The notes beneath the pieces are model-generated. The model was not told the DNA's origin, searched no databases, and saw only the letters and a program-made list of their open reading frames with translations. Below are positions 3,354 through 64,000 of a stretch of DNA of 64,000 nucleotides, piece by piece. A program made the translations under genes and the position numbers. Source of the stretch: Octopus vulgaris (lineage: Eukaryota); assembly GCA_951406725.2 (NCBI GenBank), contig OX597819.1:116870001-116934000 (forward strand), written 5' to 3'. Each line of letters begins with the position of its first letter. Position 1 is the stretch's first letter.

Positions 3354-3970
3354 GTGTGTGTGTGTGTGTGTATGTATGTGTGTATACATCACCATCGATA
3401 AAATATACTCCAACCAGTGAGACGTAATGCTTAACAAAAAGAAGATTAAAATGACTGTACTATTCGTCGCGTGAGTGTGAAGATACAGGAGTTGAACAAT
3501 TCTTTTTTTGGTCGACCGATTTGCATATTAAACACATTCCTGACAATTAAAATATCCAAGAATATTCACATTCTTGCACATTTCAATTGCTGGTAGGGAC
3601 GCATATATGGTTTTCTGTCCACAATATTCGACTCAGTCTGTTTTGCCGTTGAGAACAAGCAAGAAAGTACAATGTGAAAGAATTAGACGAAATTAGTGAT
3701 GTGAGAAAAATGAAAAATAAACATACAGAGAAAAGGAAAGCAGTGCATGTCTTTAGCCCATTGAAATAGTAATTGAAATGGTTGGTGTGTTTTATTCATT
3801 GGCGAAAGACTTAATGCTTAATCCAGAGCGGGTTCTGTTATCAAGTTCAGTAATGGAAACTTCTCCAGATGGTTAGATTTAAAACACCATTTCGGATACA
3901 GAATTCAGTAGGTCGGTAGAATTCTTAGATCTAAAAAGGATATATATAAACGCCTGCTGGGTTCGGCTGC

Positions 3971-4013
3971 TCTGCATTGATAAGGGGCAAATACCCTGAA
4001 ACTAGTCTGCAGA
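3971..4013 (+). ncRNA. Minimal type I hammerhead ribozyme with U3-A8 core variant
   Basis: tctgca-TTGATAA-gggg(caaata)ccct-GAAAC-ta-GTC-tgcaga. Stem I is a perfect 6 bp and is extended by 3955-3968 pairing with 4015-4027. Predicted cleavage after C4007. Confidence 0.8.
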
Positions 4014-4211
4014 TGCCTGACCCGCAGGGGGAAGCAGCTGACCTCCCCTGTTGGAAGGTTATAATGGACACAGGTTCGTGTGTCACATAGCTAGCTAGAG
4101 GCGATAGCCGCTTGGAGCTAATCAACGGCAGCATCCATCCTATATTTCTGGACTGCCAAATTAGCTTGGCGATAACTATTGATATATATATATATAAGTT
4201 ATATATAAAAG

Positions 4212-4542
4212 ATGGCTCAGTGGTTAGAGCGTCGAGCTTACGATCGTGAGGTTGTGAGCTCGAATCCCGGACCGGGCTGCGTGTTGTGTTCTCGAGCAAG
4301 GCACTTTATTTCACGTTGCTCCAGTTCACTCAGCTGTAGAAATGAGTTGCGACGTCACAGGTGCCAAGCTGTATCTGCTGTTGCCTTTCCCTTGGGTAAC
4401 ACTGGTGGTGCGGAGAGGGAGGCTGGTATGCATGGGCGACTGCTGGCCTTCCATAAACAACCTTGCCCGGACTTGTGTCTAGGAGGGTAACATTCTAGGT
4501 GCAATCCCATGGTCATTCATGACCGAAGGGGGTCTTTACCCT
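4212..4542 (+). mobile_element. tRNA-derived SINE (family S1)
   Basis: A box TGGCTCAGTGG, B-box-like GCTCGAATCC, and TSD ttatatataaaag on both sides. Second copy at 7878-8181. Confidence 0.9.
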
Positions 4543-5431
4543 TTATATATAAAAGTTATACCAGTCTTGCATTTCCTTGATACAGGCCATTAATCTAAGA
4601 TGAGCATCATTCCATGATATTCTACTCTAAGATGTGAAGTGTTTTGTTGGCATTCAGGTCCCGGATATGGCTGTCGGAGAAGAAATATATCGGCATATTT
4701 TTTTAACTTTATTTTCGCATCAACCATCATAATTTTTCTATTGAGCTTCGCTATTTGAAACACTGGAGTGACTTCAGCGTCGCAAAACTCTGAGCTAGCC
4801 ATTCATGGCTGGTTGAGTGAGAAATTTCAATAGGTTGCTACATTTACAAACATGGAGGAAGCACATGGTGTGGTGCATGTGTGACCTCACCAGGTGCCTT
4901 CTTCACTACTCACAGGCGTTCGCAGTGTGAAGCTATTGGTTCAATCAATTTGCATATTAAACAGATTCCTGACAATTAAAATATACAAGAATATTCACAT
5001 TGTTTCACATTGCAATTGCTGTTAGGAAAGCATGTATTGTTTTCCGAACATAATATACGACCAAATATATTAAAGTTTTATAAATCAATACTCTGTTCTA
5101 CATTTTGTATTAGCAACGAGATACAATCACTTGTAAGTTATCTCCAATTAGTTTGTATTGAAGCAATATGTTCGTGTATGGGTAACGGATAAACCGTGGT
5201 GGTGAATAAGAAACAATAACCCATGCTTATAATCCCATTATCTATTTGTCTGTCTGTCATTGTAGTTTTTACATAGACGATCCCTAAATTAGTGACAGAA
5301 CAAAGTACCAGTTATAATAAAATAAGAACAGTTAAACATTTCAAGGGGTTGCAATATGGACGCAGTCCAGTCTTTACAACAATTAAAAGTGGAAAAGTCT
5401 GTTTCTTTCTCTCTACATATACATGAATGTG

Positions 5432-7634: not shown

Positions 7635-8265
7635 TATATCTCTATTACTTGTTTCAGTGATTTGACTGCGGCTTGCTGCAGTACCGTCTTTAGTCGAACA
7701 AATCGGCCCAGGCTGTATTCTTTGTAAGCCTAGTACATATTATATCGGGCACTTATGCCGAGTCGCTAAGTTATGGGGACGTAAACACACCAACATCTGT
7801 TGTCAAGCGATGGTAGGGGGACAAACACAGACACAAATACATACATTTATATATATATATATATATATATGCCAGTGAAGGCGCATGGCTCAGTGGTTAG
7901 AGCGTCGAGCTTACGATCGTGAGGTTGTGAGCTCGAATCCCGGACTTTATTTCACGTTGCTCCAGTTCACTCAGCTGTAGAAATGAGTTGCGATGTCACT
8001 GGTGCCAGGCTGTATCAACCTTTGTCTTTCCCTTGGATAACACTGGTGGCGTGGAGAGGGGAGGCTGGTATGCATGGGCGACTGCTGGTCTTCCATAAAC
8101 AACCTTGCCCGGACTTGTGTCTAGGAGGGTAACTTTCTAGGTGCAATCCCATGGTCTGTGTCGTGACCGAAGGGGGTCTCTGATATATATATATATATAT
8201 ATACACGACTGTCTGCTTTCAGTTTTCGTCTACCAGATCGATTGACAAGGTTTTGGTCGGTCCGG
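7630..8265 (-). mobile_element. SINE S2 copy with a nested S1 SINE (7878-8181, + strand) in its internal microsatellite
   Basis: S2 3' part at 7630-7830 and 5' part at 8205-8265. The nested S1 matches 4212-4542 apart from an internal deletion. Confidence 0.8.
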
Positions 8266-8269
8266 AAAC

Positions 8270-9020
8270 GTTGCCGAGATTGATGTCTCAGAGGTTTCCC
8301 TCGAGGTTTCCCAAGTGGCGTCCCGTTTGATCGATGTACTGAGAAGGGTAGAAACAGCAGGGGATGTAGTAAATGACGTGGTTAGAAGTGCAGGTGACGG
8401 AGTTAGTGATATGATAAGGACAATGATGTGAGGATGGTGGTGTTGGATAGCGCCAAGTGCGGCAGCGTTTGCTGGAGCAGGGGAACGAGCCGTGTTGGGA
8501 GGTGGGGTTAGGGAAGAAATTGTGAACCAGCTGGCCATGTAGATTGTGAGTTCGTTTGAAGGAGGGGAGGGGTAGGCTGGATGGCTCGGAGAATGGTGCG
8601 TTCCAGAGGCAGGGTGGAGAGGTGGAGAGTCAGGGTGAGTGTAAACGGGAGACGGGTAACGGTGGGGCTGGTGCAGGGAGAGACAGCATATGCACGGTCC
8701 ACGGGACGTACTCTGGCAGTGGCGGTGCGGATAATAGTGAGGGGATATCCACGAAGGATGAAGTGGCGAGCCATGGTTTGATACTGAGTCTCAATCATGG
8801 ATGTCACTGTAGAACCTGCGCAGACGGAGGAATTGGGGTGGGGATGGAAAGGTTGGTGCTGTTAATTTGAGGTAGAAGTATGAGTCAGTGTTTGTCTGGT
8901 GGATGGAGGGGGAGAGAGTGGAGTGATGTATGATGACCAAAATGTCGGGAAATGTGATGGAAGTGTGGAAAATTGTTTCCGGAGAATTCGAGGGCAAGAT
9001 GGAAATATTGGACAAAAGGG
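8270..9020 (-). mobile_element. Degenerate Penelope-like retroelement (RT C-terminus/thumb plus GIY-YIG)
   Basis: Frameshifted peptides TDSYFYL...PQFLRLRRFYSD and MARHFILRGYP, and in another frame NHVIYYIPC...YIDQTGRHL, all typical of PLE thumb and GIY-YIG regions. Confidence 0.85.
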
Positions 9021-9176: not shown

Positions 9177-9563
9177 CTAGCAGTATCGCCCGGCGTTGCT
9201 CGGGTTTGTAAGGGAAATAACTATATAAACATTTTTAGAGATGTAAAGTATAATAGCCATCTCAATATGGCTAACTACAAAGGGGGTGGTTACTGTAGCT
9301 TTTTACGTTCTGAGTTTTAATAATTTTTAGAGAGTTACTTCCCTTATATATGCTATAAATGCATTAAAAATGGGAAAAATTATGGTAAATTATTTTTTAA
9401 ATCGTAGACTCATCGTAGACGCGCGCTAATACCCAGAAGGGCTCGATATGAATCACGACTATAAGATATTCAGTTTTGGTTAAACTGCACCGCAAAATGT
9501 GGGAGTAGTTAGGAATCTAGATCGTAAGAGTCAGGCACACAACTTCACTTTGATATATAAAGA
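9177..9563 (-). mobile_element. Non-autonomous Helitron
   Basis: The minus strand begins A|TCTTTATATATC and ends with hairpin cccgagcaacgccggg followed by CTAG. Confidence 0.8.
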
Positions 9564-28601: not shown

Positions 28602-28960
28602 TGTAAAGTATAGAAGCCATCTTAACATGGCTAACCACATAGGGGGGGGTGTTACTGTAGCTTTATAGCTCCAAGAGATCGTCGTCTCCAGCTGGCTTTA
28701 GACACCATTTCACTCCCCTTGAAGTATTTGCAAAGGGAGGCCATCCCTTCCTCGCAAGCCTGAGTGATACGCTCGGACTAGTTTCGGGATTTTTGTCCCT
28801 TGTCAACGGGCGGTAACCACCAGGTCTTGCAAATACTTCAAGGGCACTGAAATGGTGTCTAAAGCCAGCTGGAGACGACGATCTCTTGGGGCTATAAAGC
28901 TACAGTAACACCCCCTCCCCTATGTGGTTAGCCATGTTAAGATGGCTTCTATACTTTACA
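28602..28960 (-). mobile_element. Palindromic hammerhead-bearing insertion with ~132-bp inverted arms
   Basis: 28602-28733 is the reverse complement of 28827-28960; the spacer carries a hammerhead. No TSD. Confidence 0.9.
28770..28812 (-). ncRNA. Minimal type I hammerhead with U3-A8 core variant
   Basis: Minus strand cgcccg-TTGACAA-ggga(caaaaa)tccc-GAAAC-ta-GTC-cgagcg. Stem I has one mismatch and is extended by gcaagacctgg.../...caggcttgc. Confidence 0.75.
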
Positions 28961-32682: not shown

Positions 32683-34009
32683 TAGACAAATCAACGCTAG
32701 CAATTGGCTGATACTTTTTTTTAATCCATGGCGAAATTATGAAAAGCGAAATATGAACTGTTACCTGATGATGCAGAGACTTGGGATCATAACGCAAAGC
32801 ATTGTATCCCACAATATTTGAGACTACACACTATTTTGTGGATTGTTCCAGGAGCTTTTAAATGGAAAAATTCAATTTGGCCACTTTAATATCATTGATT
32901 GATAATCAATTTGCCTCTTGGCTCCTTGAGCAGTTACGTAATTGTAAATGCGCTGTTAAAGTTCATACGTTTAATACTGTGTTTAGTGACCGACGTGGTA
33001 TGGAAATATTCTTACGCTAATCAATCATAACGAACACTAATGAATTCATAAACTTCGGTAACATTTCCTTAGTTATATTAGCAGGCATCATAGTGTGAGT
33101 TGATGAAAATGAAATTACCAATCAGCTTAAATCAATGGTAATACAATTGCAACATGTATCTCAGCGCATATAATTTAGCATGATTCTGCTAAAATATTGC
33201 TGCAATTCTGAAACGAAGGCCTTGTCAACGTTTTCAAATTTTGATTTATATTCATACATGCATGAGTGAGAGAATAACTTTGTAGGTAGAAGAAAACATC
33301 TTGTTTAGTTTGGAGTTTGTACTTGTCGTTGCAGAAGTTAAGATGTGTTACCCACTTCCGATATCATTGACTATACGTAAGTAATATGCCACCATTGACA
33401 GCAGCTATGCCGCTATCGATATATAAAGGTTGTGTAGTGATGATTTCAGAAATTTTCTCAAATTTCATTAAAGATAGCATTTCTATAATGTACACAAATA
33501 TTAGCATACGCAGATGGTTGGCCTAATTGGTGACAATTTCCTTTGTTAGGGTCAAATTGAGCCAGAATATATAGGAAATTTAATACCGAAATGATAGGCC
33601 ACATTTCTGCTGTGGTTAAGGAAGTGAAATATGTATATATGATCCCAAAGACAAAGTTTTACTTCAATAACAATAGCAAGGGTTTAAATCAGTATTGGCT
33701 TAACTGAATGGACTGTTCTGGATCATCGGCACATAAAACATCTGTGGTGTGTAAATAGCTCGAATAATGGGGGGGGGCACAAATAATAATATGTTTATGG
33801 GCGTGCATCCTTATATACATGAACATATGCGTGTGTGTGTGTTTGTGTGTGTGTGTGTGCGTGTGCGTGTGTGTAGACATACATAACCAATAAAGAAAAT
33901 GTAGTTAGTGTCTTCCTAAGATTATAATGTGTACTCTACTTAGGAGTATTGAGTAATCCGACTCATAGAATCCTTCAGCAGTAAGGATTTAAATAATGAA
34001 TCAATGGTT

Positions 34010-34720
34010 AGAAGTAAATTCCACTTCACCCCTACACGGGAAAGGACAAATATTTAGATGCGTATATAGACACCATTTCAAAGTTCCCCCTACATATCCA
34101 CAGATGCAAACGAAACCTTCGCGAAGTCTTACAAACATTGAAGAATGACAACTCAATCATCTTAAAAGAAGCCGATAAGGGAGGGGCGATGGTAATCATG
34201 GACAAGGGCTATTATAAAGATAAAATATTGGAAATGTTAACAATCCAAACCAACTGCAACCAAGACACTCAGAAAAAACAATAATGAATTGAATCAGAAG
34301 ACTAATCAATGAATTCCAAGATTCCTTTACAGACAAGGAGAAATATATATGCAACTCTTTAATCAAAGAGAGCAATTTATATGGATTACCCCAAATCCAC
34401 AAAAGCTCCGAAATGCAAAGAGCCATAAATAAGCAGAAGAACCTGTACGTAAAAATACTAAAACCTGCTGACCTCGAAGTAAGACTAATAGTTCCTGGAC
34501 CTCAAGCACCAACACAACATCTAAGTCATCTCTTTAGTTACACCCCTAAAAGATTTGTGTCCTTTAATACCCAGTTATGTACGGGATGGCAAAGATTTTA
34601 TCAAACACATCACTACCAATTTCGCAGAAGGTACTATACTTACAGGTTTTGATGTCACCAATCTCTATACTAATATACCTCACTCTTTATATGAGCATCT
34701 ATGGATAACAGGTGAAGTTC
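34010..34720 (+). mobile_element. Penelope-like RT N-terminal fragment, frameshifted
   Basis: IILKEADKGGAMVIMDK, LYGLPQIHK, RLIVPGPQAPT, IPSYVRD and FDVTNLYTNIPH are PLE RT motifs. Confidence 0.9.
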
Positions 34721-35047
34721 CCCCATCAATTCTATTCTAATACTACTGGAATGAGACATACAAATTATGTCTTAAGTAAAGTTCACTATTTTCCTACATG
34801 TGTTTATGACTGAGTATTGTGTGTGTGTGCGCATGTATATATATGCATAAACACACACACACACACACATATATATATTTATATATATATATTATATATA
34901 TATATACATATATAATATATATAATATATATATATATATATATAATCAATCAATATAGGGTGGCAAAAAAAATTTTGTAGAATTCTTTTACCACCAGCGG
35001 CCTAGTAGGAAAAAATTAAATAGTCATAGACCATTTTTAAGTTCAAC

Positions 35048-35265
35048 ATCAAACAATCAAGGAACGGCTATAATAGGCCATTCACCCACTAGAAATAACA
35101 GCCAAAGCTTCAACCGCAAATAAAAGTTAATTCTGTAAACCAGGAGAAGGGTAAATGTTTTTTAAATTTTCTCCTGGTTTACAGAATTAACTTTTATTTG
35201 CGGTTGAAGCTTTGGCTGTTATTTCTAGTGGGTGAATGGCCTATTATGGCCGTTCCTTGATTGTT

Positions 35266-35269
<4 letters not shown>
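35048..35269. repeat. Inverted repeat with ~100-bp arms and a 20-bp spacer
   Basis: 35048-35148 is the reverse complement of 35169-35269; flanked by (TA)n. Confidence 0.95.
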
Positions 35270-35346
<77 letters not shown>

Positions 35347-41899: not shown

Positions 41900-43374
41900 G
41901 TCACGCTATTGAAACGTCGGACTAGATACCTTGCTATATCTATTCTGTGATCAAGCTAGAGCAATAAAGAAAAATTGTTGGTTCACAGAAGTAGAGCTCG
42001 AAGCTGTCAAAAGTCAGAGATAACAATGAAAATAAAAATTCTTACTAATAAGAGTATTCCCATAGCACAGGAAAGGAGCAGTGGTAGCTTACTTGATAAG
42101 AGACATATAGATGATCTCAAAGAAGACAATAAAACTAAATGACAGATGAACAAAAGGCAATCTACGGCCGAATAAAGACAAGACTACAGGAGAACGATAG
42201 AGACATTATTTTCAGCCTTAAAAAGGTTGATCGATGGAAATTGAACCAAGAAACGAAAATTGTCAATGAAATTCTGATATACATCAGAACAAACAACATC
42301 ACAGAAGCAAATAATTTGATCAAGGCAGCAAATATTGTTGCAGCAGGAAATGTGGGTGTTCATGTCAAGAATTAGAAACATAACGTGACTGAAAAAAGAA
42401 AAACCCATGGTGGAAAAGAAGAATCCAGGCAGGGATAGACATGCTCCCGAAGGAAATCTCTGTGTTACACCGACATGATAAAAGAGAGCTTAAAAGCGAA
42501 TAAGAATACGTGGCGCTGAAAAGGAAGTATTATTGAAACGACCTGAAAGTAGAAGAAGAAGAGCTGAAACAGCGCCTCGTTGCAAAGAAAGCAAATATGG
42601 TAAGATACAACCAAAGAATAAAGGGTTGCCACCACAATAGGTTATTCAGAGTAGATCAGAAGAGATCTATGCCTGAAAAACATTGTAAAAGGCAATACGG
42701 TAGAAAATTACAGGACGATATCCTGTTTTTCCCTAATGTGGAAGTTATTGATTGGAATACTCGCAGAGTCAATATATGAACATCTGGAAAAAAAAGGAGT
42801 CCTGCCATATGAGATGAAGGGTTGCAAGCGTAAGTGCAGAGGTACGAAGGATCAACTCCTGATAGACAAAACTTTACTTAGAGACTACAAGAGGAGGAAA
42901 GTTAACATAGCCATGCCATGGATCGATTATCGTAAGGTGTACGTTATGATTCCACATTCTTGGATTATGAAGTCTATGAACCTATTTGGCATTGCATCGA
43001 ATGTTGAGCGATTGCTTGGAAAAGGTATGGAGAATTGGAGGACGGATCTGGCAGCATACGAAAAAGTTTCGGGACAGTAGAAATTAGGAGGGGCATCTTC
43101 CAATGGGGACGAACTGTCCTCACTGATCATTGTACTGTGCTTGGTTCCACTAACCCTGATTCTGAGGAAAGCAAAAGCTGGGTATGTATTCAAAAGCCGG
43201 CAGCAAAAAGTCAACCATTTGTTACTGATGGATGACTTGAAACTTTATGGTAAAGATGAAGCCCAAGACAGTAGTTTCTTTTATACTGTGTACACCTTCA
43301 GTGCCGATATCAGAATGGAGTTGGGACTCAGAAAGTGTGGCGTGTTAGTCTTGGAGAGAGGCAACATGAAATAA
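41900..43374 (+). mobile_element. R4/Dong-clade non-LTR retrotransposon, internally deleted pseudogene
   Basis: WKLL.GILAE.IYEHL...[18 protein letters not shown]...[21 protein letters not shown] and VNHLLLMDDLKLYG. Confidence 0.85.
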
Positions 43375-44829: not shown

Positions 44830-45780
44830 TTCAGTACAAAGACCCTATTACGCTTGTTACTGATAAGATGACGAATATTCTCTTCAGAAATTTCTTGCAA
44901 AATTTCACGCAGTAATCTGAAAAGCTCTGCCTTTCAGGACACTTTCTTTTGCTTTTTACAAAGTGTTCTGTCCATTATGCCGCAGAGGTGTTGAAGAGTT
45001 TATGTGCGGTGATTGGCTTGGCTACATAAAATTTTTAATGCCTTCACTTCCAACCAATTGTGAGTCATTTTAGCCATGTGACAGGAACCACATCTTCCAT
45101 AAATAAAGAGTCTTCTATAATCCTTTCATTAATGGAGAAGATTGGAAGTAATCCTTTCTCCAATATGGGCACATGTTTCCTTCGCACACAACCGCATTCC
45201 AAATTGCTCCAAATCGCACCCCAGACATCACAGAATAGCTGGAGTGTTTCATGGTTCGCTGCAATCTTTCCTGTAAAATTCTTGATCACAGAGTCTCTAC
45301 ACCCACATTCGAAAACCGTCAGAAAATCGAGCAAATCTGGAATCATCAGAGAATATGACGGTGTCACAAAATGCCAGTGGCCTCTCTACAATCTCACTGC
45401 CCTAATCTTTTCTCGGCTAGGTATTGTTGGTTCGAAGACGTGGCTTCCTTCTTGTTGCTCGGCCACTTTTTGTGGAGATATATGGCAGATGCTCTGGGAC
45501 TGATACCATCTTGTTCTGCTATGTTAGAGGCGTTGCAATAAGGATTATCCTTTTAACGAAGTGAAGTGTCCTGGTCGACTTGGACGGGATGATGTGGACT
45601 CCTTATTCACACTGGTTAATTGCGCACTCACACTATTAAATGTAGAAGGCGGGATTCCAAGGTTTCCTGCAATTTCACACTAAGTCCACTTTCAGATTGA
45701 TCCACAAAACGGCATCTTTGGAATTTGGACAGTTCCAAGACTTCTCTTTTATGTGACATGATTAAGCAGTCACATACAGA
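44830..45780 (-). mobile_element. Tc1-like transposase pseudogene
   Basis: Frameshifted VIFSDDSRF, VWGAI, ILEKGLLP...FMED and PSQSP remnants of the Tc1 DDE domain. Confidence 0.85.
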
Positions 45781-53438: not shown

Positions 53439-54269
53439 CAGTATTTTGTGGCATAGAAAATCATATATTTATTCTGTACGAATACTTTCTTCACCCCTAA
53501 ATATTTATAATTGTATATAAATTCATTAGTTGCTATCATTTATTAGTTTCTCTTGCATATTCTTAATTTATGCATGTGTATGCAAATATAGTATTGGTAT
53601 ATCCCATTTATGTTTATTAGAAATTAAAGAAATAAAGAATTTTGACATGTACGAATATTTATCCCCCCCCCTCTGTACATATATATTTATATATTCGATA
53701 TTGAAATATAAATATAAAGATATCTTAGTTTTTTTTTGCTGATATGGGAGGCTGGATTCATGCATTATTAGTTTGTTTCCATTACAGAAGTTTTCGAATT
53801 AAGTCTACCATCGGCTGCATGCTATGCAAAGTAGGAAAGTATCCTAGTGTCTTAACAAATTTTCAAGCCGATGACATAGAGTATGGTATTTATTCCTGTT
53901 TTGGAAAACACAGATTCGTTTAGTTCGTGGAGTCTCACATGAATTCACGTGAATAAAACAACGAATCAATGACTCAAGAGACGTTACTCCCGGGTGATTT
54001 GTTTTGGCTGCTTTTCTCTCTTGGATTTGTGTTTTAGGCAAATCGTTTTGTGCAATCAATTGTTTGCATTATATTGCTTTTATTCTGGGCATGGTGTTCT
54101 TATACTTGTGTCCTGAGGATGTTTGTGATTAGGATATATTTCTTCTGTGTGTGGTGTTTGCATGCTCTATGTGTTTAGATTTCAAGTTTAGGAAAGAGAG
54201 TATCTCCGTGGAATTACTGTCGCAGATATTGGCTCTTCTTTGAAATATCTGAGAGTAAAATATTTCTCG

Positions 54270-55930
54270 TTCGCACAGTTGTGGCTCATTTTCGTTTCCA
54301 TGGCCACTCTAGTGACCTGTTGGTAAAACTCCCCTGCAAACAAGAAGCATGCGAGCGGGAGAGCAATTTCAGCCAGATGAAGTGTGGTGTGATGTTGGAC
54401 GTTGGGTGGAAGGTCTAAAAGTGTTTTAGTACAAGAATGCCTTCGATGTGTAGGATGACGGTATATTGACTCTTAATATCAACCGCGAAGAGAAGTTTAG
54501 AGGGACCAGAAGGGAAGGAAAAAGAGTTAGATAGGAGAACTTGGTTAGTGTAGTGGATGTGGAAGGGGAGGTGAGCTACCTGGGGGCAAAAACACGGTCG
54601 AGGCATTTACATATAAATTCCGTGGCCGAAGACGATGGAGCGGCCAGAGGTTTTGTGGATTTTGGGACGAAAGCCAATATTAAGGTGCGTGGAGTGCGGA
54701 AAATGAAGCTGAAGGCGGCTGGAGGGACATAGAGGGAGGTGAGGTCAGGGATAGTGGAGGACACAGTCTGCTGGTAGTTAGGTGTAGGGTTGGAGGACAG
54801 AGAGCAATAGGTGTCTTGAAGATGGTGGAGAGCTTCAGATTTGTAGTGTTCTACACGCCCCACCACCACCTTCCACCCTTGTCATCCGGTTTCATGATGC
54901 TATCTTTGCAGCATCGGAAACGTTGAATGGCCGAACGTTCGGTCGGGGAAATATTAAAATGTTGGGGACGCGTGCGAAAGTTAAACCGGTCCACAACATG
55001 TTGGCAGATGCTTGGAAAATGATCAACTGCTAGGAACTGTCCAGGAGCTGGCATCTTGTGGGATGGTCAGCAGCCTAGGTCAGTGAAGCAGTCTCCTTCA
55101 TTAGGTGTAGGCTGAGTGCAGTGGAATAGTGCATATGACTTGATGCGGTTCACAAAGCTATGAATATCAGCACGGGTCTGAGGTTCTTTACTGGATGGAG
55201 TAAGGGGGATTAATCGTAGACCCTTATTGAGAAGAGAGTGCCCTGGTTCAGAGAGAAGAGATCAGGGGGAATGGTAACAACAGACTTAAGTGGGAGGGCC
55301 TGGATGAGTTAGACATTGGGGCGATAGTGGTGGCAGTGGAAGGCTGGGAGAGAGAGGATAGGTGCGTGGGGGTCTGGAGTAACGGAAGGGCTGGGATGAG
55401 GATAAGGAGGGGGTGTATCGGGAGGGAGAGAAATTAGTGAGGGTGGGTGTAGTGGCATCGGATAGGACAGAATGAAGGAGTGAGTGGAGTTTATGTTGTT
55501 TAGTGCGAGCCAGGAACTCGTGGAAATCATGATTTAAATGGATAATGAAGCGTAGAGTAGAATGTGCAAAGGAAGGTGAATGGCAAGAAAAAAGGGTGGC
55601 ATAAGCGAGAGGGAGAAGACGGTCGAGGGCGTGTATTAGAACGAATGATGGCAGTCGTAAGGCGGTGGAAAGTAGTACTGAGTTTGGGTAAGATGGCAGA
55701 AGCAAATTGGAAATCGAGGCGGAAAACTTTGGTGTTTAGATGGTAGTGTAGGCAGTGACTGAAAAAGGAAACATGAGTAGGAAAGCGTGTTTTTTTTAAT
55801 ATCAGCAGGGAAAGATGAATAGAAGTTTGAAAGCAGCGGAAAGGAAGCAGTGATAGGTGTTTCTTTAGGTGGTGGTGAAGGTTGAGTAGGACAGATTTGT
55901 AATCGGGCATACTGAAAAAAAAGCGAAACA
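54270..55930 (-). mobile_element. Degenerate Penelope-like retroelement, N-terminal region plus RT
   Basis: IMKPDDKGG, LFAVDIKSQYTVILH and FAGEFYQQVTRVAMETKMSHNCAN (compare Y.Q..G.AMG). Its 54935-55030 segment is inverted at 56158-56250. Confidence 0.85.
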
Positions 55931-59976: not shown

Positions 59977-59984
59977 GTTTAAAT

Positions 59985-61479
59985 ATTTGTTGTGCAAGAT
60001 TTTTTATGTGAAGTCGTGTGTTGAAACAGATATTGTTATATTTCGGAATGGTCATATTGCCAGTTTAACCAATAAAAACACACGCACTATATATTTGGTG
60101 TTATTTTGCTTCAGTGATATTTATTTTTTACATTAATCTTAATCTTATTTCGGCCAAAGTTCTTTCGTCACACTCCTGTGACCGCATCAGTGGTCCTTTG
60201 TTTTCTTCTCACTTACTTGTGTCTCTCCTTACTGACCGTCAGCCATTTTGTATTTCTATTGTATGTCTTCATTTGCGCATGCTTATATCTCTATGTGCGT
60301 CTATGTTTATTTAGTGTGTGTGGGGGGGGGATGCCTGTAATATTTGTATCTTCTGGTTATATACATTCTTGTAATTTGTATTTTGTTTTTGTTGTTGTTG
60401 CTTTTGTTCTAATTTTATTCATGTGTTTACATCCACCCATTATTATCATTACATATGCTTGTATGTATGTATAACAACAATACTAGTAATAATAATAATA
60501 AATCTAATCGAGAAAAAAAAAAAAAAGAATATACATATACATATATATACATATACATACACATACATATACATATATATATATATATACATATATACAC
60601 ACATATATACACATATACATATACATATATATACACATATACATATATATAGATATTCATTTCTATTTCTTTAATTACCTGTGTATTTATTATGTTTGCA
60701 GGATCCACTATTGTCATATGTTGTGGTGTGCGCTATTGCTCCATTCTAGTTTTCTATTCAGGCTAGGTTTATTTTCTATTATATGTGTAGCTTCTGTAAT
60801 TTGTCTAATTGTTGCATCTGTTCTATGTGTGGACAATATCTTAATCTCTATGTTATTGATTGATCCCCCGTGTTCTTGTTCGGCGTGTTGGTACAGAATC
60901 GATGAGCTTTTACCTTCCTTGAGTTGTCTCCAATGTTCATTCACCCGCTCACCAATGCTTCTTGCAGTTTCCCCTACGTATGTTACTGTCTTGTTACTTT
61001 TTCTCGATTAGATTTATTATTATTATTACTAGTATTGTTGTTATACATACATACAAGCATATGTAATGATAATAATGGGTGGATGTAAACACATCAATAA
61101 AATTAGAACAAAAGCAACAACAACAAAAACAAAATACAAATTACAAGAATGTATATAACCAGAAGATACAAATATTACAGGCATCCCCCCCCCCCACACA
61201 CACTAAATAAACATAGACGCACATAGAGATATAAGCATGCGCAAATGAAGACATACAATAGAAATACAAAATGGCTGACGGTTAGTAAGGAGAGACACAA
61301 GTAAGTGAGAAGAAAACAAAGGACCACTGATGCGGTCACAGGAGTGTGACGAAAGAACTTTGGCCGAAATAAGATTAAGATTAATGTAAAAAATAAATAT
61401 CACTGAAGCAAAATAACACCAAATATATAGTGCGTGTGTTTTTATTGGCTAAACTGGCAATATGACCATTCCGAAATAT

Positions 61480-61486
<7 letters not shown>
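59985..61486 (-). mobile_element. 5'-truncated Penelope element: GIY-YIG C-terminus, 3' UTR/pLTR, and an inverted pLTR copy
   Basis: Minus strand [17 protein letters not shown]...[15 protein letters not shown] (60714-60985). 60030-60515 is the reverse complement of 60998-61486. Confidence 0.92.
61321..61365 (+). ncRNA. Hammerhead-like motif with A9C core (also 60152-60196 and 761-805 on the minus strand)
   Basis: ggacca-CTGATGC-g-gtcaca(ggag)tgtgac-GAAAG-aa-CTT-tggcc. Confidence 0.6.
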
Positions 61487-61518
<32 letters not shown>

Positions 61519-62232: not shown

Positions 62233-63110
62233 AGGGAAGACAACTCTTTGGAGTTCTTCAATTTGTGTTTCTCAAACTCCCCAAATTCTATATATTCCCC
62301 TTCTACCAATGTAAAGACGGGATCACCACACAGGAGAGAATTAACAAGGAGAATCTCGCTATTGAAAAATTCCAAACACAACTTAATATGCAAACTCCTT
62401 GTTGATCAAACTTCCTTTTTCTACCTCATTCTTCATGGATGGACTAACATAAATATATAAGGATACCATGCATTCATCACTTCAAGCTAAAACTTATATT
62501 CTTTAAATATCATTTTTACTAATGTTGTTATTACTATCATTTTTATTATATATGATATAACAATCTGAAATGTAATTGTCTATGCAAATTTATATAATTA
62601 GAAAATAATATAAATAAAGTGTTAAAATCTGAAAGTTAAGTTAACAAAAAATTATATAAAAAAGATAATGCAATTGAAGCTAAAATGATAACTTTATAAT
62701 TTGCGGTTTATTAGCAGCCTTTATTGCAGGGGATTTTGAGAAACACAGATTGAAGAACTCAAAAAAGTTGTCTCCCCTTATTCACAACACAGGAACTGAA
62801 GAACCACAATTACTACTACTTCCTGTTTTGCCAACATCCTTAATTAAACCAAACAACACATGGTCTTAATCCCAGTGGATCCTAATACTTCAAGGTAATT
62901 TTTTCGTGAACAATTATTAAACTCAAGATACACAACGAACTCACAATGTATCGGAGTACTTATTTTTAAATTTTTGTACATATTTATTATTATTCTTTTG
63001 CAAAAAACAATGCAACTTTCTTTTTTCCCCTTTCTCATTTTTAAAAAACTTTTTTACCTAACTATTCTTGATAAGTCACATTATGACGAAAACCGGTTTG
63101 AATAAATATA
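62233..63110 (+). mobile_element. Penelope 3' fragment with a short inverted 5' segment
   Basis: [33 protein letters not shown] (~62289-62387) is a PLE endonuclease C-terminus. 62233-62283 is the reverse complement of 62729-62779. The element ends with a hammerhead just before TA-rich sequence. Confidence 0.8.
63063..63104 (+). ncRNA. Minimal hammerhead with U3-A8 core and UUU triplet
   Basis: tattc-TTGATAA-gtca(catta)tgac-GAAAA-ccgg-TTT-gaata, with palindromic aaaccggttt. Confidence 0.75.
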
Positions 63111-63236
63111 TATTTATATATTTTATCAATCTCTCATTTCATTAAAATTTTCTTTCAATTTAGCATTCTGCATTTTTACAATTTTTCCTTGCTTATCATT
63201 TCTCCAAGTGCGGTCAACACAAACCCACCATTCATT

Positions 63237-63308
<72 letters not shown>

Positions 63309-63334
63309 TATATAGCAGCGTACGTACACTTTGT

Positions 63335-63384
<50 letters not shown>

Positions 63385-63466
63385 TGTATGTATATATCTA
63401 TATATATACATATATATATGTATATATATATATATATATATATACACGCATATATGTTTGTATGTA

Positions 63467-63507
<41 letters not shown>

Positions 63508-63510
<3 letters not shown>

Positions 63511-64000
63511 TGTACTTCTCAACACATAAGAGTACTTCTCATGGGAGACTTCAATCTACCCAATGTCAGATGGCCCGAGTGCCTTTCTCTCCCAGGAATG
63601 ACACGATGTGAACAAGGGCAGGCGAGGTCCCTCCTGAACCTCATCAACACCCTGTACATGGAGCAAGTAATACTCCAACCAACCAGGGCAGGTAACACAC
63701 TGGATCTCTGCTTCACAAATAATATGGATGTCATCCATAATGTGAAAGTGACACCGCCACTACTCTCGGATCACAACATTGTAGAGCTGACCATGTACGG
63801 GCCAAAGGAAAGCATGGACATGCAGCCTACAAGAAACTCTCAGAATCTTTCCAGCTTCAACTTCCATAAGGCAAACTGGAAACAAATTGAGAAAGAGATC
63901 CTCAAACAAAACTGGCCTGAATGTCTCTCCTCGCAAGACATCGACATGAAACTTCAACATACATGTCTGTAATGCAAGCCATATGCTACAAATGTGTCCC
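63508..64000 (+). mobile_element. CR1-like LINE APE endonuclease fragment
   Basis: [13 protein letters not shown]...[15 protein letters not shown]...LSDHNIV; stop at 63970-63972. Confidence 0.9.

Follow-up and report, generated by a model that had tools for sequence, protein, structure and literature searches.

Two short, highly divergent inserts in a 64-kb stretch of octopus DNA (the whole of which is called the window below, and whose coordinates are used throughout) raise the question of what kind of mobile element they derive from and which machinery placed them there. The original prediction described a small family of two retrozyme-like members built around an unusual U3-A8 hammerhead ribozyme core. 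With moderate confidence, we interpret the inserts as copies, each shorter than one unit, of a retrozyme-like element that is non-autonomous and was moved by Penelope machinery. The repeat is likely an octopus representative of a known kind that has already been described from other animals. Published work is cited here from those parts of each paper that were available.

Hammerhead ribozymes and conserved stems of the two copies

A descriptor for type I hammerhead ribozymes was run over both strands of the 64-kb window. It matched three sites, at 3977(+), 28806(-), and 63068(+). The U3-A8 pair, a helix II of 4 bp, and a palindromic helix III are common to all three. The loose form of the descriptor matched 0.28 times per window across 60 dinucleotide-preserving shuffles; none of the 60 contained a match to the strict form. 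A second descriptor with a different stringency recovered two of the three hammerheads, and its mean over 100 shuffles was 0.13 matches. The type I core (nucleotides 3-9, 12-15, and 16-17, with the 3-8 base pair) is in place and is closed by helices I to III, of which helix I is open-ended; helix I is paired in 11 of 12 cells and helices II and III in all. Both inserts named in the original prediction are thereby confirmed as real, complete type I hammerheads with the rare U3-A8 core pair, a natural covariant that is active in vitro (PMC3088659).

The hammerhead of the first insert (copy 1) spans 3971..4013(+), as defined by the descriptor and a pair table. Its helix I is formed by 3971-3976 and 4008-4013, U3 is nucleotide 3977, and A8 is nucleotide 3982. 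Helix II (3984-3987/3994-3997) has a G-U base pair at 10.1-11.1, helix III (4001-4006) is a 2-bp palindrome, and the cleavage site is predicted to lie after C4007. The hammerhead of the second insert (copy 2) lies at 28770..28812(-), with U3 at 28806 and predicted cleavage after C28776. It was found by the descriptor and also aligns with the Rfam family Hammerhead_HH9 (RF02275) at an E value of 1.7e-6 and 32.7 bits, which does not reach the gathering score of 52. This alignment spans the whole model, loops 1 and 2 included, and gives copy 2 the features of a canonical type I hammerhead: a 6-bp helix I, a 4-bp helix II, and HH9-like loops 1 and 2. The Hammerhead_HH9 family differs from the copies, which have the U3-A8 pair and a much shorter helix III. 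Rfam returned no hammerhead match for copy 1 or for the hammerhead at 63068 at E values up to 10, and nothing in the window reached a gathering score. By alignment to copy 2, copy 1 has helices of equal size and a 6-nt loop 2; one of its loop 1 bases is unlike that of copy 2, and a minority of the copy 1 family carries the copy 2 base. Neither hammerhead has an extra base after A9. In copy 1, helix I continues into a rod with loop 1 as an internal loop (3952..4031(+)), and this extended helix I is more stable than shuffled sequences in both copies (folding z scores of -3.13 for copy 1 and -3.48 for copy 2).

Copy 1 (3950..4180(+), 231 nt), which is delimited by alignment and by loose ends of the family at 3950 and 4180-4185 and is probably a 5'-truncated piece of a putative unit of ~295 nt, aligns colinearly with copy 2 (28602..28826(-), 225 nt). 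The architecture that the two inserts were proposed to share, U3-A8 hammerheads included, indeed matches the sequence at these positions. The copies are identical at 119 of 229 aligned positions (52%) and at 24 of 31 core positions. For the region 3' of the cleavage site (86 of 177 identical), shuffles aligned as well in 2 of 2,000 cases by local alignment and in 4 of 2,000 by end-free global alignment. Twenty-nine proposed base pairs are formed in 77 of 79 cells, and eight of them have changed on both sides, compared with at most one when the partners are slid; these controls use two to four related rows, with the structure read from those same rows, and are not probabilities. Copies 1 and 2 are better read as two subfamilies. 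Stem I pairing had been said to persist despite a complete change of sequence, and four of its six pairs have changed on both sides, but one is unchanged, and in copy 2 another is replaced by a C-A mismatch.

Two further stems are conserved 3' of the hammerhead. A 6-bp hairpin from the pair table at 4154..4171(+), with its counterpart in copy 2 at 28615..28632(-) (z = -2.88), has all six pairs formed in all four rows, two of them with two-sided change, and is a candidate signal for the start of reverse transcription. A bulged stem, also from the pair table, lies at 4093..4119(+) and at 28667-28693(-) in copy 2. It consists of 4 bp and 5 bp, a 3-nt bulge, and a 6-nt loop, and is a candidate protein-binding site whose folding alone is weak (z of -1.12 and -0.38). 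The purine/pyrimidine hairpin that had been singled out at first finds no folding support by itself (z of -0.65 and 0.06). A palindromic hexamer also occupies the equivalent aligned position in both subfamilies (4050-4055 and 28728-28733); that of copy 1 is palindromic with the majority base of its family, and an inversion joint of copy 2 (see below) falls exactly at its hexamer.

Covariation, together with stops in all sense frames of both copies, bears out the view of these inserts as non-coding, structure-conserved ribozyme retroelements. An antisense frame of 76 codons in copy 1 has no Penelope similarity. An overlap between hammerhead and ORF start of the Poseidon type was rejected because every sense frame meets a stop codon inside the copies and, as judged by eye, inside the extension of the family. 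Four window pieces of the repeat served to build a profile and a covariance model, which recovered only those pieces in the window, with the next best match at an E value of 0.48.

Insertion footprints and the Penelope elements of the window

The second insert had been placed at 28602-28830(-). This location stands, but copy 2 itself reaches only to 28826 and, in its own orientation, is preceded by an inverted arm of 134 nt (28827..28960(+)) that the prediction omitted. The arm duplicates the 3' part of copy 2 (28602-28733), to which it is joined at the palindromic hexamer and is identical at 129 of 132 positions, with 3 mismatches and 2 gap columns. A 65-nt 3'-terminal fragment of the copy 2 subfamily, with its hairpin kept (folding z of -3.61), is present at 9241..9305(-) (E = 1.9e-15) and is identical to copy 2 at 57 of 69 positions. 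Because the two arms are nearly identical to each other and much less similar to this fragment, the inversion likely arose at insertion. Copy 2, its inverted arm, and the fragment all end on one base, 13-14 nt past the 6-bp hairpin, and the pieces of 65, 225, and 231 nt combine 5' truncation with a fixed 3' end.

Copy 1 is bordered on the right by a (TA)n run (4181..4207) that is matched by a TA run on the left (3939-3949). Its 10-nt shared flank is this TA run, and with such runs on both sides, a target duplication would be indistinguishable from a microsatellite. The flanks of copy 2 share a word of 7 nt at most, which is offset from the insert ends. The target-site duplications of metazoan retrozymes, where present, exceed 4 bp. 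No tandem repeat was found at either site. The marks observed at these insertions (fixed 3' end, 5' truncation, inverted arm, and (TA)n target) are of the Penelope type.

The window is rich in microsatellites and carries several other repeats. A tRNA-headed SINE-like repeat was recognized by eye in two copies, at ~4205-4545(+), directly after copy 1, and at ~7880-8170(-); ARAGORN called no tRNA in either. A near-perfect palindromic, MITE-like element beside (TA)n was likewise seen by eye at ~35040-35270. LINE remnants include an endonuclease at 63316-63972(+) (Exo_endo_phos_2, E = 3.6e-10) and a reverse transcriptase at 42655-43080(+) (RVT_1, E = 6.4e-5). Overlapping open frames at 45039-45503, with no Pfam match for 45065-45385, have a non-repetitive composition and are possibly a host exon.

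For the Anolis element Poseidon, internal initiation at a stem-loop, cleavage at AT-rich DNA, and a tail have been established (PMC11167929). Like the copies, the pseudo-LTR hammerheads of EN+ Penelope elements (PMC4209133; Poseidon PAc, PMC11167929; PMC8557442) occur with 5' truncation and an inverted 5' copy, and EN+ Penelope-like elements also share with the copies a fixed internal 3' end near a stem-loop and AT-rich targets; their optional extension may correspond to that of the copy 1 family. The footprints of the copies are matched in geometry by a coding Penelope insertion at 59980-61487, which is flanked by (TA)n runs. Its inverted arms measure 301 nt (99%) and 248 nt (91%), and it has a GIY-YIG C-terminal remnant at 60738-60998(-), a layout like that described in PMC8557442 and PMC11167929. 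At 60190(-) and 61327(+), this insertion contains a motif that resembles a hammerhead and in which position 9 is C and the 6-bp helix II is bulged; the motif recurs at 799(-).

These marks would also be expected if the copies were solo pseudo-LTRs, the 3' ends left by 5' truncation of coding Penelope-like elements, which we consider a serious possibility of less than even probability. The 5' extension of the family described below would then be additional 3' UTR, and the 3' extension would be an optional tail of 30-40 nt or the beginning of the next tandem unit. Penelope-like elements account for 6.83% in O. vulgaris (PMC13282606), and Penelope insertions are mostly 5' truncated and in many cases carry a tail and an inverted copy (PMC8557442). 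The U3-A8 pair is found in the Penelope hammerheads of Schistosoma, which number ~1,300, are mostly single motifs, and are extremely variable (PMC4209133); the copies thus have it in common with Schistosoma Cercyon, and a palindromic 2-nt helix III loop occurs in Penelope elements as well.

The window itself holds six Penelope coding remnants, and the third U3-A8 hammerhead (63062..63105(+)), which belongs to a separate element, lies 675 nt downstream of one of them, the C terminus of a Penelope RT-GIY-YIG protein (62274-62393(+), E = 1.7e-5). Part of the same feature (62233..62393(+)) is a 50-nt inverted cap at 62233-62282, a copy of 62729-62778. The interval 62233-63230 is probably one Penelope insertion that comprises the inverted cap, the protein C terminus, an AT-rich 3' tail, and the hammerhead at 63068, and that has no similarity to copies 1 and 2 beyond the core. 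Decayed remnants of Penelope RT/endonuclease also occur at 8306-8967(-), 33956-34761(+), and 54203-55258(-), and a reverse transcriptase fragment at 34293-34649 shares 78% identity with a protein of Octopus bimaculoides, which points to an octopus-type genome.

Several observations weigh against assigning the copies to Penelope tails. No Penelope RT or GIY-YIG coding sequence was found within ~1 kb of copy 1 or copy 2, the nearest remnants being 4.1 and 5.1 kb away, and for want of a linked ORF we do not class the copies as a Penelope element. GC content is 50-52% in the copies compared with 27% around the third hammerhead. In PMC7229834 and PMC7761336, retrozymes are assigned the canonical hammerhead type and Penelope elements the minimal one. 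Unlike the minimal hammerheads of EN+ Penelope elements, which combine an extra base after A9 and a long helix II with a lack of tertiary loops, the copies are of the canonical HH9 type, have neither the extra base nor the long helix II nor an adjoining ORF, and keep loop 1/loop 2 sequences of the tertiary type.

A comparison set of 46 Penelope loci (L003-L048) was taken from bacterial genome bins, where they presumably represent animal host DNA; many are from a single Stappiaceae bin. Descriptor matches were obtained in eight of the 46: in six the match follows the ORF on its coding strand, and in two it is weak and lies on the reverse strand. The latter, U3-A8 matches in L023 and L032, were rejected as chance on account of their weak helices. 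All six ORF-downstream hammerheads, two of which come from one tandem contig, have C3-G8, and the extra base after A9 is present in five. The distance of 675 nt between ORF and hammerhead in the window falls within the range of 155-1145 nt at five Penelope loci. Rfam found no hammerhead in the 15 Penelope loci scanned. The profile and covariance model of the copies matched nothing in the 46 loci, all from other animals, which also counts against Penelope tails as the source of the copies. However, the tandem Penelope units L014/L015 have the same helix III palindrome as copies 1 and 2, and together with the U3-A8 hammerhead at 63068, which is unbulged and without the extra base, they indicate that core type does not cleanly separate retrozymes from Penelope elements. 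A Penelope search of viral contigs found none, and a second protein query yielded no homologue.

The copy 1 family in DNA and RNA sequencing runs

Family-level data were gathered for the family of copy 1 only, from sequencing runs, four of which were aligned at 80% likeness. The copy 1 stretch, whole or in part, was present in 20 of 24 listed runs (15 studies, five organism labels), and none of the 24 contained half of its words. Family matches in DNA comprised 3,522 of 40,628,035 contigs in run X2 and 1,849 of 28,564,347 in run X12. In X2, summed depth reached ~2e5 in the core and 1e6 over 4066-4089, compared with 43 on the unique flank; it is not to be taken as a copy number. The family of copy 1 is plainly large and high-copy, and the idea of a small family with two members is not supported.

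Variation within the family includes changes in paired positions. Pair 10.1-11.1, which is G-U in the window, is A-U in 109,444 of 171,678 depth in X2 and G-C in one X12 loose end, and G3974A occurs alongside C4010T as a second, unphased compensation. Among the 24 of 421 loose ends shown, those at 4180 and 4184 have mixed flanks (agreement of 0.54 and 0.45), and others share an extension, either on the 3' side (29 and 15 contigs) or on the 5' side (34 and 27 contigs). The family therefore extends at least 30 nt past both ends of the window copy, and in part of the family, the 3' extension is at least 35 nt long. A 14-nt motif of this extension is absent from the window. The 15 joints shown of 18 consist of 10 strand switches, four skips, and a single go-back, each seen in one DNA contig and none in RNA. 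Six of the 10 strand switches start at 3949-3953 and may merely reflect the family's own 5' extension. The inverted-copy signature was also seen in X12 record 5 and in internal strand-switch joints.

When the 30-letter loose ends were compared by eye with the window sequence, both extensions were found to pair with it. The 3' extension pairs with 4148-4152 (5/5), 4125-4132 (8/8), and 4059-4071 (10/13), and the 5' extension pairs with 4048-4058 (10/11) and 4033-4043 (8/11 plus one G-U in DNA, 9/11 in RNA, and 11/11 with the listed variants). The pairing of the 5' extension, which the window copy lacks, prolongs the extended helix I rod in the family. The partners are antiparallel, nested in order, and abut at 4058/4059. 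With random ends, two nested tail helices arose in 6 of 4,000 trials and an abutting tail end in 15 of 4,000, whereas two nested head helices arose in 11 of 6,000, or 1 of 4,000 at a stricter RNA score. This nested, abutting arrangement suggests a rod-shaped unit of ~295 nt, either circular or tandem, whose length would be about 231 + 35 + 30 - 2 = 294 nt if the ends join. The modeled structure is a branched rod whose two tips would be formed by the hammerhead and the 3' hairpin. If the copies were instead Penelope tails, an ORF of 2 kb would have to be looped out at exactly the point where the extension partners abut. A head-to-tail join was not seen, and the two 30-letter ends overlap by 2 letters only; this junction test is weak because reads of 150 nt from a diverged haplotype would have to bridge ~63 unseen bases.

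RNA matches to the family amounted to 301 of 12,895,792 reads (X23) and 303 of 11,974,664 reads (X24), a low level of about 23-25 reads per million, with ~6% of each run covered. These two runs bear another organism label, and the RNA and DNA are from different samples. The reads fall about equally on both strands, and their ends do not pile up at the cleavage site; in these reads, a missing pile-up cannot inform on cleavage, and such libraries may lose circles.

The lack of a read-end pile-up at 4007 would fit a linear, SINE-like, non-autonomous Penelope derivative with an internal deletion, which would retain the rod and the 3' signals and move as linear RNA, and in which the hammerhead is a passenger and no circle forms. 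Precedents exist, in that insertion of Anolis Poseidon in vitro was unaffected by hammerhead mutants and no reads ended at its hammerhead cleavage site (PMC11167929), and of nine dimer constructs from Xenopus, eight failed to cleave (bioRxiv 10.64898/2026.07.22.740005). We nevertheless regard such a derivative as quite unlikely, since the core, helices, and tertiary loops have been kept at 52% identity, which argues for selection on cleavage, and since pairing across the ends is better explained by a closed or tandem unit.

The RNA differs in composition from the DNA. RNA reads that reach the 3' end share one extension (41 and 67 reads, with agreement of 0.93 and 0.89), whereas the DNA flanks are mixed. 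Roughly half of the RNA reads have variants whose share of DNA depth is 1% or less, such as A4124C (40 of 65 reads versus 2,989 of 274,067), and this suggests that a few loci probably dominate expression. Furthermore, a 5-nt duplication that ends at the cleavage site (window 4001-4007) is present in 45 of 123 and 32 of 91 RNA reads, with 27 and 28 different start places, and is absent from both DNA contig sets (X2 and X12). In structural terms, the duplication would turn the 2-bp helix III into one of 4 bp with a 3-nt loop. Given that the DNA and RNA samples differ and that contigs drop rare variants, a genomic variant is the likelier source.

A rod-like unit of viroid size and the RNA variants that are rare in DNA could alternatively point to an exogenous viroid-like circular RNA that left a genomic footprint when it was reverse transcribed by Penelope enzymes. 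This origin appears highly improbable: the family fills thousands of DNA contigs under several organism labels, the descriptor scan places the hammerhead on one strand only, and with RNA and DNA from different samples, a few expressed loci suffice to explain the variants. A related proposal, in which a ~295-nt viroid-like circle is primed by Penelope at the fixed hairpin and the expressed pool is unlike the genome, is doubtful. If the duplication did arise and persist at the RNA level, by ligation or RNA-to-RNA copying, it would mean that an animal retrozyme evolves outside the genome, and that such a retrozyme is evolving toward a monomer-active ribozyme.

Proposed mechanism and relation to known retrozymes

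Our preferred explanation remains a retrozyme-like element mobilized by Penelope proteins. Transcription would start from full-unit or tandem loci, in keeping with the low-level family RNA observed, and the hammerhead is predicted to cut after C4007 (C28776 in copy 2). The 2-bp palindromic helix III suggests that two hammerheads per transcript are needed for cleavage. Two cuts would free a monomer of ~295 nt, which a host ligase of the RtcB type could close; cleavage in dimers and ligation by RtcB are both established in other retrozymes (PMC7229834). A Penelope protein might then bind the 3' hairpin and the bulged stem and nick AT-rich DNA. Reverse transcription would begin internally at the fixed 3' end, just past the conserved hairpin, and early stops and template switching could account for the short products and the inverted arm. 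Each copy in the window has a single hammerhead and is shorter than the unit; no circle can be released from such copies, which are likely dead ends.

This reading gains support from the canonical HH9-type loops and from the putative closed rod of ~295 nt. Because its tandem units and circles are putative, we use the term "retrozyme-like" and leave the element outside the retrozyme class. Metazoan non-LTR retrozymes resemble the copies in having a canonical type I hammerhead with a weak palindromic helix III, in being non-coding, as the octopus unit appears to be, in reaching thousands of copies with Penelope elements alongside, and in having a self-paired unit in the range of 150-450 nt, where the octopus unit would also fall. 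Published units measure 220-245 nt in coral, 350-390 nt in mussel, and 330-350 nt in axolotl (Cervera and de la Pena 2020, PMC7229834). In contrast to metazoan retrozymes, the octopus element has a U3-A8 core, its copies are dispersed and shorter than one unit, and two conserved 3' stems are common to subfamilies that are 52% identical; in the accessible text of PMC7761336, animal retrozymes show no conserved motif that points to a partner. Coral and mussel retrozymes also yield abundant circles, whereas the RNA level here is low. Retrozyme monomers derived from pseudo-LTRs (Li, Clavereau, and Pollet 2026, bioRxiv 10.64898/2026.07.22.740005) are, as here, solo chromosomal copies with a Penelope origin or dependence. 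As far as the available part of that preprint goes, the set covers vertebrates, three insects, and a coral, with no mollusc, and activity is tied to at least two tandem units, unlike in the copies.

Hammerhead patterns had no match in viral, metagenome, and prokaryote genome contigs, and a 20-mer of copy 1 at two metagenome loci was dismissed as chance (only the 20-mer matches, at GC of 0.57 and 0.69). The hammerhead of Hydra-1_Obim is C3-G8 and differs from those of the copies, and two diagnostic 10-mers are absent from the available portion of the PMC8557442 supplement. In the accessible text of PMC13282606, we found no mention of ribozyme, hammerhead, or retrozyme. No cephalopod report of this repeat family was found in a search that lay outside most subscription papers, Repbase, and the PMC7229834 supplement. 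The retrozyme kind and the presence of U3-A8 in Schistosoma Penelope elements are known; what is new is the cephalopod occurrence, insofar as no such report was found.

If the copies prove to be the tails of coding Penelope elements, they would be ordinary and of little interest. The case for mobilization of animal retrozymes by Penelope elements, as presented in the accessible parts of PMC7229834 and bioRxiv 10.64898/2026.07.22.740005, rests on co-occurrence and phylogeny. Here, an apparently non-coding unit with a canonical hammerhead is tied to Penelope-type scars, which allows candidate cis-signals to be named: the two stems kept at 52% identity, one of them right before the fixed 3' end. 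A candidate partner lineage can be named as well, as the same window contains a Penelope tail with a U3-A8 hammerhead. If our preferred explanation is true, it would extend retrozymes to cephalopods.
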